A stretch of DNA of 64,000 nt from a virus. Numbering within the stretch: the stretch's first letter is position 1; the number at the start of each line of letters is the position of its first letter. A program made the position numbers and the translations under genes. Under the pieces are notes generated by a model, which was given only the letters and a program-made list of their open reading frames with translations, was not told the origin of the DNA and did not search any database. Shown here piece after piece: positions 14,669 to 18,410 of the stretch. The DNA lies in IMG/VR virus record IMGVR_UViG_3300046710_000057, positions 22,339 to 86,338 of that record; one strand, given 5' to 3'.

Positions 14669-15058
14669 TTATTCTTGCTTCTTGAATGGGAGATCGCACT
14701 TGTCCTTGTTTGGACAGTTATCACAATCCAACGGCTCTCCGTCAGGCGGAACTTCTGGTGCGGTCTTCTTCTTCATAATGCCCAACACGCCGTTAAGGGC
14801 GCTTGAGAAATCGAATGCCGCCATCATAGTTTCAGCTAGACCTACCATGAATCGCCGCATTCGTTCGTCACGTCGCAGTCTGACATACTCTGCGATCACT
14901 TTGACAAGAGTGATGACATATATGGCTAGGGCAAATCCTGCCACAACAAAGAACATATCTTCTGGCGCACCCAGAAAATACAGTAGCAACTCGGTCGCCG
15001 TTAAAGCAAGCACGATTGCTACATCAACGATGTTTCTCTTTACTGCTTGTAGCAGCAT
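14669..15058 (-). CDS. Membrane protein with C-terminal CxxCxxxxxC
   Basis: Two hydrophobic helices; CDNCPNKDKC. Confidence 0.6.
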   Translation of the reverse strand: MLLQAVKRNIVDVAIVLALTATELLLYFLGAPEDMFFVVAGFALAIYVITLVKVIAEYVRLRRDERMRRFMVGLAETMMAAFDFSSALNGVLGIMKKKTAPEVPPDGEPLDCDNCPNKDKCDLPFKKQE

Positions 15059-15059
15059 C

Positions 15060-15227
15060 TTACGACCTCCGCTTTCTGATTATGTAACCTACAAGGCCAA
15101 CGAACCCAGCACCTAAAGCTATCATAGATGACGGTTCGTACACCACTGGACATGGTGGTTTTGGTTTAGCTACGGCAGCCGTAGCTAATACCATACATGC
15201 ACCTATCAATACGAGCAGCTTGCACAT
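15060..15227 (-). CDS. 55-aa signal peptide plus PEP-CTERM-like protein (not in ORF track)
   Basis: GGAGG RBS; MCKLLVLIGACMVLATAAVA-KPKPPCPVV-YEPSSMIALGAGFVGLVGYII-RKRRS. Confidence 0.8.
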   Translation of the reverse strand: MCKLLVLIGACMVLATAAVAKPKPPCPVVYEPSSMIALGAGFVGLVGYIIRKRRS

Positions 15228-15238
15228 GGGCGTTCCTC

Positions 15239-16672
15239 CTAGAACACGATGTTTGGAGTTACCGAAGTGGTATCTGTTATCTGCCTTCTGATGAAGGTCG
15301 AACGTGCAAAATCTGTATGCACGTAAGCAATGAGATTGTCCTTTCCGTCTCTCACTTTGCTGATCTTTAAGTATGCTTCTTCATTGTTGGCGTGCTCCTC
15401 GTTTCTTATGATATGTATGACATAGTGTGCCGGTTGAGCGATCAAGTACGACAGTCCTATGTCCGCATTCGAGACCTCTTCGATCTTCTTCTTTGCGGCA
15501 GACACATGGTTCTGAACCAGAATCCACATTCCGATTCCTCGACCGCCTCGTGAATTGGTCAGCTTCCTGGCCTTACCCATCAGTGCTGCCGTTATTGCTC
15601 CTTGTGAATCCCAGGATAGACTACTCCGTCCATGTGCCATGTTGTCTGGACTTACCAAACCTTGATGGTCAATAATTACCATGTCAGGTCTCCAATCGCC
15701 GAATCTATTGACGATGATAGACTCTATGACGTTTGGCGTAGCTCCTTCTGGGATGTCAACGATCTTCAGTCGCGCTCCGAGGTCCGCACGCGATTGCTCC
15801 ATGTTTGCCACCCAAGACGGAACCCAGTCAGGGCAACCTTCGTCTGGTAAGGCGGCGAACTTGAATAGGTTATAGGGTAACTGACACAAGCGAGCGTAGT
15901 ATTTGAACTTGATAAGCTGGAGCGACGACTCAATGGTGAACTGACAAACATTATAGCCGTGTGTAAGCGCAGTAGCTCCGATGTCCACAGCCAAGGTAGT
16001 CTTTCCTCTTCCTGAAGGAGCGGCAATGATTCCTGTCTCTCCCCAGTGAATACCTTGGGTTTCTTGGTCAAACTCTGGAATCCCTGTAGGGATTCCGATA
16101 AAGTCCTCTGGATGTAGTCGTTTGTATTCAATCCATTGAAGGTCTTCTTCATAATCAAAGAGGTCTCCAATAACGATTCCTTCGGCGTTATCGAGTTCTT
16201 CGATCTTGAGCAGGGACGATCTGAGTTCCTTGAGTCCATCGGTGACTTCTCCTTTGACAACTAAATCGGCGAATGTTCCACCAATGTCAACGATCTCACG
16301 GTTCCGGTAAAGGGCAACCAAGCGTTTGGCAATCGCCATGCCTTCGTCTTTTGGAAGCGGTTCTGTCTGAAGCAGCCGGTCAATAAGGATGTCGTAGTTC
16401 TCATGAATCTTCTCGCGCTCTTCCGGTGACTTATCGCTTTCAGCCGTCTCTTCGTGCAGGATGGACATTAGCATATCTTTGGAAGGAATACACCCATCAC
16501 TGCGGTATCGCTTGACGACATTGAAGGCAATCCAGCGTAGGTCTCCTGCTGTAAACCATTGCCTACCGTGCTTAAAATCCCACATCGTCATGATCTCGTT
16601 GACTGTTTGTTGTCCAACGAGCATCCCTGCCGCCAATCGGCGCTCAAGTGTTACATCTTGGGTTTCCAGCAT
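15239..16672 (-). CDS. dnaB: Replicative DNA helicase, DnaB-like
   Basis: PTGIPEFD, Walker A AAPSGRGKT, FTIE, VIIDH, ISKVRDG. Confidence 0.9.
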   Translation of the reverse strand: MLETQDVTLERRLAAGMLVGQQTVNEIMTMWDFKHGRQWFTAGDLRWIAFNVVKRYRSDGCIPSKDMLMSILHEETAESDKSPEEREKIHENYDILIDRLLQTEPLPKDEGMAIAKRLVALYRNREIVDIGGTFADLVVKGEVTDGLKELRSSLLKIEELDNAEGIVIGDLFDYEEDLQWIEYKRLHPEDFIGIPTGIPEFDQETQGIHWGETGIIAAPSGRGKTTLAVDIGATALTHGYNVCQFTIESSLQLIKFKYYARLCQLPYNLFKFAALPDEGCPDWVPSWVANMEQSRADLGARLKIVDIPEGATPNVIESIIVNRFGDWRPDMVIIDHQGLVSPDNMAHGRSSLSWDSQGAITAALMGKARKLTNSRGGRGIGMWILVQNHVSAAKKKIEEVSNADIGLSYLIAQPAHYVIHIIRNEEHANNEEAYLKISKVRDGKDNLIAYVHTDFARSTFIRRQITDTTSVTPNIVF

Positions 16673-17322: not shown

Positions 17323-17539
17323 GCTCCTTCTTGTAGTGTGCTTTAGCGAACTCTAATGCAGAAGCATCGTCTACAACTGTTTCATCACCGACAAAATTGG
17401 CCGCACAGTAGACACACGATTTCCGATAACAGTAACCGTAACCACGTTCGTCTCCATGACAACGATAATATGTGCCACAATCTTGAACGACGGCTCTAAA
17501 ACGTTTACGGCAAGGTGGGAGACTGTCAAATAGGCTCAT
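17303..17539 (-). CDS. Hypothetical Cys-rich protein
   Basis: 78-aa ORF coupled to fabG. Confidence 0.55.
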   Translation of the reverse strand: MSLFDSLPPCRKRFRAVVQDCGTYYRCHGDERGYGYCYRKSCVYCAANFVGDETVVDDASALEFAKAHYKKEHEDAQS

Positions 17540-18303
17540 AGACTTGTACCCCCATCAATCACGAACGTCTGACCAGTGATAAAGTCGGCATCTGGCGAGC
17601 ATAGATAGTCTACCATTGCAGCAACTTCTTCCGGCTTGCCGAGTCTACCCATTGGGATAGTCTCTTTCCAATCAGAATCGGCGACTGTACCCTCGAATCG
17701 TTTCTGGATATTCTGGATTGGCGGAGTGTCGATCAGACCAGGAGCGATAGCGTTGACCTTTATGCCATAGTGCATTAGTTCCACTGCCATACTTCGAGTG
17801 AAACCTATGATACCGGCCTTCGTTGCAGCATACACAGCCTGTCCTATATAGCCGCGCAGCCCACTTATACTAGAGACATTGATGATGCGTCCGCTTCGCT
17901 GCCTCATCATTTGCTTGGCTACAAACTTAGTCATGAAGATCAAGCTAGTGAGGTTAATGTTAATGAAATCGTTGATCTGATTATCAGAGGTCCGAACCAG
18001 CAGACTCTCTTGCATAACGCCAGCGTTGTTGACCAGAATGTCAATTTTCTTGTATGTGGCTATGATCTCATCAATGTCTGTTTCAAGATGATTGCGGTCT
18101 GTGATGTCACGTCTAATGACGCGCAACTTCAAACTAGACTGCGTACACTGATCAACGGCAGTCTCCCACAGTTTGTTCATCGACTCTTCGGTCCTGGTCA
18201 GAACGATGACGTTTGCTCCGTGTTCAAGAAATCGTAATGTGATTGCTGTTCCAATGCCGCCTGCGCCTGTTACCACTACAGTCGAGTTGTCATACCAGTT
18301 CAT
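17536..18303 (-). CDS. fabG: 3-oxoacyl-ACP reductase (SDR)
   Basis: TGAGGIG, LVNNAG, NVSS, YAATK, NAIAPG, IPMGRLG..EEVA, FITGQ..VIDGG. Confidence 0.85.
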   Translation of the reverse strand: MNWYDNSTVVVTGAGGIGTAITLRFLEHGANVIVLTRTEESMNKLWETAVDQCTQSSLKLRVIRRDITDRNHLETDIDEIIATYKKIDILVNNAGVMQESLLVRTSDNQINDFININLTSLIFMTKFVAKQMMRQRSGRIINVSSISGLRGYIGQAVYAATKAGIIGFTRSMAVELMHYGIKVNAIAPGLIDTPPIQNIQKRFEGTVADSDWKETIPMGRLGKPEEVAAMVDYLCSPDADFITGQTFVIDGGTSL

Positions 18304-18410
18304 TATGTAACACTCCAAATCAACACACCGACAGCAACCAAAATTGCACACCCTGCAATCTTGAGAAATGTATCAAACCACTCCGTAGGTTCGCCCCCTG
18401 ACCATTCCAT

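Follow-up and report, generated by a model that had tools for sequence, protein, structure and literature searches.

A 55-residue mini-protein with a PEP-CTERM-like tail encoded in the replication operon of a peat phage

The stretch of DNA analysed here, called the window below, comprises 64,000 nucleotides and corresponds to bases 22339-86338 of a 128,636-base IMG/VR virus record (IMGVR_UViG_3300046710_000057) that is rated complete. The phage, of about 129 kb, is present in several peat metagenomes and has no close cultured relative, its replicative helicase being 24.8% identical to that of the best GenBank phage. The replication operon is found on the minus strand of the window and encodes, in this order, a DnaC-like loader, the helicase, a mini-protein (below, the mini), a 129-residue protein, a zinc ribbon protein, a primase and a sigma factor. 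A gene for a FabG-like reductase (window 17536-18351, minus strand, phrog_3142, E 4e-60) is found 2.3 kb upstream of the mini gene and is transcribed in the same direction. The features around the mini gene are as follows, the five parts of the protein having been delimited by sequence inspection:

15239-16672, minus strand: DnaB-like replicative helicase gene, upstream of the mini gene and used as synteny anchor (phrog_19, E 6e-41)
15234-15239, minus strand: Shine-Dalgarno sequence GGAGGA, 6 nt upstream of the ATG of the mini gene, read in the sequence
15060-15227, minus strand: the mini-ORF (P0001), 55 codons and a TAA stop codon, from the list of open reading frames and its translation
15168-15227, minus strand: residues 1-20, signal-peptide-like, with Lys3, 16 hydrophobic residues and Ala-Val-Ala
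15141-15167, minus strand: residues 21-29, the Pro/Lys-rich linker KPKPPCPVV with a single Cys
15126-15140, minus strand: residues 30-34, YEPSS, with Tyr (TAC) at the position of the first Pro of the PEP motif
15078-15125, minus strand: residues 35-50, a Gly-rich transmembrane helix of 16 residues, MIALGAGFVGLVGYII
15063-15077, minus strand: residues 51-55, the basic cytoplasmic anchor RKRRS
14669-15058, minus strand: orphan gene encoding a 129-residue protein, downstream of the mini gene and translationally coupled to it, from the list of open reading frames

A sequence-only reading of the window had pointed to a 55-residue frame with a strong ribosome-binding site, and both are confirmed at 15060-15227 on the minus strand, with GGAGGA 6 nt upstream of the ATG. 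This site overlaps the TAG stop codon of the helicase gene. At the other end, the stop codon of the mini gene lies 1 nt from the ATG of the gene for the 129-residue protein, and the GGAGG site of that gene (15066-15070) is embedded in the Arg codons of the mini's tail. The frame thus takes up the whole 180 nt between its neighbours, in a minus-strand operon whose genes are tightly packed. Inspection of the locus gave no convincing promoter or terminator between the mini gene and the adjoining genes, and given this packing the gene belongs to the replication operon.

The downstream protein has two N-terminal membrane helices and a charged, Cys-rich C-terminal half ending in CDNCPNKDKC. It matched no family and had no named look-alike in the Atlas, and it shows no homology to the ORFs that related phages carry in the equivalent position. 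It was considered as a mini-exosortase and rejected as such, as it contains no His and matches no family model.

The mini itself had been described as a signal peptide of 20 residues, a linker of nine, YEPSS, a helix and a basic tail, with no passenger domain, and this five-part layout is right in every detail. The signal peptide was judged by rule, from Lys3, a hydrophobic core of 16 residues and Ala at positions -3 and -1 before Lys21. The C-terminus consists of RKRR and one Ser, followed by the stop codon. Two other readings of the layout were discarded. There is a Cys11 after Ile-Gly-Ala, but the 10 residues that precede it are too few for a lipoprotein signal, and a spanin would have to be longer to cross the periplasm.

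The codon usage of the frame amounts to 0.115 bit per codon. This lies at the 13th percentile among real 55-codon gene windows of the same phage, and 0.12% of off-frame windows reach it. The G+C content of the gene is 47% and that of the phage 48%. The mini-ORF is a real phage gene, as seen from its ribosome site, its coupling, its codon usage and its identity across peat samples.

Seven helicases with 54-56% identity to that of the phage led to syntenic loci in metagenomes and in IMG/VR. In all these relatives the slot after the helicase gene holds unrelated small acidic or Cys-rich ORFs (L003:5453-5641, L004:5597-5791, L005:5610-5804 and L002:4370-4531), or none, and the slot looks like a hot spot of gene turnover inside the replication module. 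No PEP-CTERM ORF was found in two complete relatives (113 and 124 kb), and the only TIGR02595 match in the relatives' records, a weak one (13.3 bits, in G003), was rejected because no convincing gene contains it. A search by shared words in 5.8 billion protein clusters returned only the mini itself, a tblastn search of GenBank phages gave no match at E<=10 (the low-complexity filter may mask it), and a pattern scan of IMG/VR with an alignment of three minis found no relative. The helicase or FabF used as single-protein queries against viral and genome contigs likewise returned nothing.

In peat metagenomes the picture is different. The whole mini is covered without differences in runs X2 and X5, and run X4 covers its 3' two-thirds, likewise unchanged. 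The sole difference in 831 bases of run X2 is a C>T change at 15238, which turns GGAGGA into GAAGGA on the coding strand. The contigs covering the mini are near-identical to the phage, that is, strain-level copies from three further metagenomes, and they are therefore weak evidence of conservation. A second contig of run X5, from a moderately diverged relative, matches the helicase gene with about 86% identity at window positions 15623-15888 and is too short to reach the mini gene. The sequence-only reading had let its case depend on conservation of the frame, and here the outcome is divided: the closest phage relatives that could be reached lack the ORF, but it is invariant in the strain-level peat copies. 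Taken together with the unrelated ORFs that the relatives carry in this slot, this indicates that the mini gene is a lineage-specific addition in a variable position.

When it comes to family membership, the NCBIfam PEP-CTERM model TIGR02595 gave 21.3 bits on the whole mini, above its cut-off of 16, while the Pfam model PF07589 gave 19.0 bits (E 0.0014), short of its gathering score of 20.7. The proposed match to PEP-CTERM models thus held for the first and not for the second. In a six-frame search of the genome the mini scored 19.5 bits with TIGR02595 (E 3.4e-4 per genome) and was the sole match in all six frames of the 128.6 kb; the same model had no match in 14 control genomes. A scan of variants with TIGR02595 gave 21.9 bits for the native tail, 29.6 for a version with PEP, 18.4 for YAP, 14.6 for YEA and 12.6 when YEP was changed to AAA, and the isolated helix and tail gave no match. 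Hence Glu-Pro lifts the match over the cut-off, and the Tyr costs about 8 bits.

It has been reported that Pro-Glu-Pro is near-invariant at the start of the PEP-CTERM domain (Haft et al. 2006, PMC1569441). The mini has Tyr-Glu-Pro instead, and the TIGR02595 alignment begins at the Glu. The other hallmarks are present: the motif is followed immediately by a hydrophobic helix, a basic cluster stands at the very end of the chain and, as judged by rule, the same protein has an N-terminal signal peptide.

The cell-wall anchor model for LPXTG proteins, TIGR01167, also scored on the mini, with 22.2 bits over model positions 11-32 only, and it gave 15.6 bits on the helix and tail alone. Since this model passes on the helix and tail as well, part of the score is generic. 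The mini contains no LPXTG-type pentapeptide, and it was rejected as an LPXTG protein, as only the positions of the helix and the tail were matched.

An exhaustive phmmer search of 1.84 billion representative proteins gave five matches other than the mini itself at E<=1e-3, and four of these are PEP-CTERM tails according to Pfam. The fifth, P0012 (576 residues), shares the heptad PKPPCPV, which was judged a chance match of low complexity; this protein carries at least seven repeats, each with P-K-P-P-C-P as in the phage linker. That the nearest neighbours among 1.84 billion proteins are PEP-CTERM tails, together with the TIGR02595 score above cut-off and its dependence on Glu-Pro, upholds the assignment of the C-terminus as a PEP-CTERM-type tail.

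The best full-length match in this search was P0014, which is 65% identical to the phage mini over the tail and 50% identical over the full length. The database call of this protein, with 121 residues, probably starts too far upstream. Read from a GTG that is preceded by GGGAG, it is a mini of 59 residues with a signal peptide, a Pro-rich linker, VPEPGS, a helix and RRKR, and the linker of the phage mini aligns with its Pro-rich linker. The gene (L017:1196-1672) is part of a unit of about 410 bp. The 5' flank of this unit recurs downstream of the stop codon, which suggests that mini genes are arranged in tandem arrays. For the gene adjacent to P0014, only distant homologues (<=38% identity) were found in Armatimonadota. 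An Armatimonadota genome (G295, L056:3942-4100) encodes a native mini of 52 residues that is 37% identical to the phage mini over the full length, and its gene has a promoter-like site, a ribosome site and a terminator hairpin. With TIGR02595 the mini of P0014 scored 25.3 bits and that of G295 17.2 bits. Both have the same signal-peptide-like N-terminal layout as the phage mini.

Clusters of Atlas look-alikes with 53-72 residues carry PEP-CTERM, VPDSG-CTERM, VPEID-CTERM or XrtJ-target families and are leads only; those of 53-62 residues with PF07589 are grouped here with the native minis. The library proteins P0013, P0015 and P0016 (406-2500 residues) contain two to 10 complete internal PEP-CTERM tails each, as if a row of tandem PEP-CTERM genes had been read through into one protein. 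In five Armatimonadota genomes, small open frames that match PEP-CTERM models were also considered as minis, and they turned out to be mostly gene fragments. The cargo-less build noted earlier is thus real, as the phage protein has no passenger, but it is not a phage invention, since native minis are found in bacteria, an Armatimonadota genome among them. As these are of the same build, the phage gene looks borrowed or imitated from a host mini gene, and less like a decoy architecture that arose anew. In the library of papers that was searched, no description of a phage-encoded PEP-CTERM mini-protein was found.

PEP-CTERM tails are more alike within species than between species (Haft et al., PMC1569441). 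Patterns taken from the phage mini and from its best match were used in a scan of 185,579 species genomes, which resulted in 11 confirmed loci. Nine of these are in genomes titled Armatimonadota, and a tenth is in a genome that came up in the sample taken of Armatimonadota. The tails found by the scan are 58-68% identical to the phage tail (residues 28-55), and 45-54% identical where the match extends upstream. These tails read like VPEPGSMLALG..GLVGLVGF.IRRRK. With HMMER, P0001 matched 81 genomes out of 401 from Armatimonadota, with a best E of 1e-7. Among 401 genomes from the phylum to which a MAG titled Sphingomonadaceae belongs, it matched seven, with a best E of 3.8e-4.

Two tail models were built. 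The first, the less circular one, was made from eight tails that the generic TIGR02595 had detected in Armatimonadota genomes chosen beforehand for their phage-like tails; it gave 34.1 bits on the phage tail, at most 29.5 bits on tails of other organisms and 8.4 bits on the next-best phage frame. The second, of 34 tails, gave 49.8 bits on the phage tail and is partly circular, because some of its tails were picked by their likeness to the query. At the motif position these 34 Armatimonadota tails have Pro in 32 cases and Ala in two, and none has Tyr.

Five of the Armatimonadota genomes with the closest tails were searched for the sorting system, and each has two exosortase genes and 11-38 PEP-CTERM tails. 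At both exosortase loci that were inspected EpsI adjoins the exosortase, and one of them also has an EPS priming transferase. Several of these genomes have a G+C content of 45-51% over the stretches read, near the 48% of the phage. The Armatimonadota-like wording seen in the sequence-only reading is thus borne out, with 10 of the 11 nearest tails in 185,579 species genomes and with exosortase systems in the genomes concerned. The phage itself has no match to the exosortase models PF09721 and TIGR04178.

Since PEP-CTERM tails are most alike within a lineage, the tail provides a sequence-based host hint for this 129-kb peat phage, which probably infects a peat-dwelling member of Armatimonadota. 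The hint has one line of evidence, the wording of the tail. A profile search did not find the helicase type of the phage in the 401 Armatimonadota genomes. The first 20 kb of the window, compared with six genomes of one Armatimonadota family, gave only matches of 23-58 nt and none of spacer type; two of them, of 23 and 26 nt, were checked and are not located in repeat arrays, and the short matches were therefore treated as chance.

The explanation that we prefer, with moderate confidence, is that this phage gene encodes a mini without passenger that is predicted to be exported through Sec, and whose sole recognisable part is a PEP-CTERM-type tail of Armatimonadota flavour. The gene may have been taken from, or shaped on, a host mini gene, in which case the host is probably a peat Armatimonadota bacterium. 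Its transcription would be shared with the helicase loader, helicase and primase genes of the early replication operon. After export and removal of the signal peptide, a peptide of 35 residues would be left in the inner membrane, with about 14 residues in the periplasm, the helix across the membrane and RKRR inside, so placed that the motif would be at the periplasmic face. There the host exosortase would encounter it like its own substrates. At lower confidence, the peptide might compete for exosortase with the 10-40 PEP-CTERM surface proteins of the host, and the Tyr in place of Pro may slow or block processing, leading to an altered surface or matrix display in infected cells. Processing as an ordinary substrate is nearly as likely as competition or blocking, and the two outcomes seem about evenly balanced.

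If the mini were such an ordinary substrate, the host exosortase would process it as it does host minis, the Tyr being tolerated, and a Pro/Lys/Cys peptide of about 10 residues would be released or attached to the envelope. As an account of its own this is rather unlikely, although the canonical native minis of bacteria speak for it, as does the rest of the phage tail, which is typical. So does the presence of Ala-Glu-Pro in two of the 34 Armatimonadota tails, one of which (L038, G010:C44:7349-7417) is on a frame of 275 residues and the other (L054:568-726) on a frame of 52 residues that has no signal peptide and looks like a gene fragment. Against this stand the lack of Tyr in all 34 tails and the two base changes that separate Tyr from any Pro codon, and the role of the native minis is itself putative.

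The sequence-only reading had put forward a decoy or inhibitor of the host exosortase that could block display of the receptor or S-layer and so exclude superinfecting phages, and such a role is plausible. In its strongest form the mini is a dedicated anti-sorting decoy. The mini would then be an uncleavable early substrate analogue that occupies the host exosortase and strips off or withholds PEP-CTERM proteins from surface and matrix, and this would exclude other phages or loosen the exopolysaccharide matrix. We regard so specific a function as a tentative proposal and improbable as it stands. The Tyr is two base changes away from any Pro codon, but since natural Ala-Glu-Pro tails exist the motif rule is not absolute, and the replacement of Pro by Tyr is in itself no sign of an inhibitor. 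A co-fold of residues 21-55 of the mini with an Armatimonadota exosortase (L032), used as a stand-in, gave a score of 0.02, which weighs neither for nor against an interaction.

It is also conceivable, though unlikely, that the mini is evolutionary cargo without a role, that is, a host mini gene or gene end that was recently captured in the variable slot and has been kept by chance. The small unrelated ORFs after the helicase gene in every relative agree with this, as do the orphan status of both the mini and the next gene and the two complete relatives without such a gene. However, the frame is intact, it has a strong ribosome site and it is coupled to the downstream gene. Its G+C content (47%) and codon usage fit the phage rather than a fresh import, and it is unchanged in three other peat metagenomes, where the strains are near-identical and the evidence is correspondingly weak.

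Small early membrane proteins are common in phages, and the mini could be a generic single-pass protein of this kind, for instance acting in the exclusion of other phages or by disturbing the membrane, in which case the PEP-CTERM likeness would be coincidental and no exosortase involved. The helix and basic tail do satisfy the LPXTG-anchor model as well, and the first Pro of the motif is missing. We nevertheless consider this quite unlikely, as Armatimonadota tails are 58-68% identical to the mini in Glu-Pro-Ser-Ser and the exact wording of the helix, an unbiased search returned PEP-CTERM tails as the nearest proteins, and no other phage frame exceeds 8.4 bits on the tail models. That the mini is not a gene at all, being a chance open frame in a 180-nt spacer, is very improbable: the ORF is short and has no homologue in related phages, but it has a ribosome site, fits exactly between its neighbours, shows a coding-like codon usage reached by 0.12% of off-frames and has a composite layout for export and sorting that matches native proteins.

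Cargo-less PEP-CTERM minis are thus a natural bacterial class that phages can carry, and the phage copy with its altered motif is a natural experiment on what an exosortase needs in a substrate. If the decoy function proves to be true, surface display that depends on exosortase could be switched off with it, which is of relevance to flocs and biofilms. It would also be the first exosortase inhibitor from a phage, and it would give experimenters their first handle on a poorly characterised family of enzymes. Its source would be an Armatimonadota phage, and we know of no cultured phage for this phylum.

The known system closest to the mini is that of the PEP-CTERM substrates of exosortases (EpsH, XrtA). 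It shares with them the signal peptide, the motif at the membrane edge, a Gly-rich helix of 14-16 residues and the C-terminal basic cluster, and its wording matches the tails of one lineage, as the expansion of the family within lineages predicts. It differs from them in having Tyr-Glu-Pro, in lacking a passenger domain and in scoring below the Pfam gathering score, and it is a single copy in a phage without exosortase, not a member of a paralogous family. By its sequence the mini would thus act like a PEP-CTERM substrate, but it is not filed as a strict member, because it departs from the Pro-Glu-Pro rule and falls short of the Pfam threshold, though it passes that of NCBIfam.

With the LPXTG substrates of sortases (TIGR01167) the mini has in common a helix and a basic tail after a short motif. 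It differs from these in having no LPXTG-type motif, and its closest tails are from diderm Armatimonadota. The XrtJ-associated TM-motif-TM proteins (PF27850), which are presumed exosortase targets, are similar in their length of about 56 residues, their hydrophobic N-terminus, their short motif and their C-terminal helix. This likeness comes from an Atlas feature look-alike at 0.91, which uses language-model features only, and an NCBIfam search of the mini gave no model of the XrtJ-target type at E<=10.

The native minis (G295, P0014 and the Atlas clusters) have the same four-part build as the phage mini and a length of 52-59 residues, and those of G295, P0014 and the phage all pass TIGR02595. 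The native proteins have the canonical Pro-Glu-Pro and are encoded in single-gene units or tandem arrays in cellular DNA, whereas the phage mini is encoded inside a replication operon and carries a Tyr in the motif.
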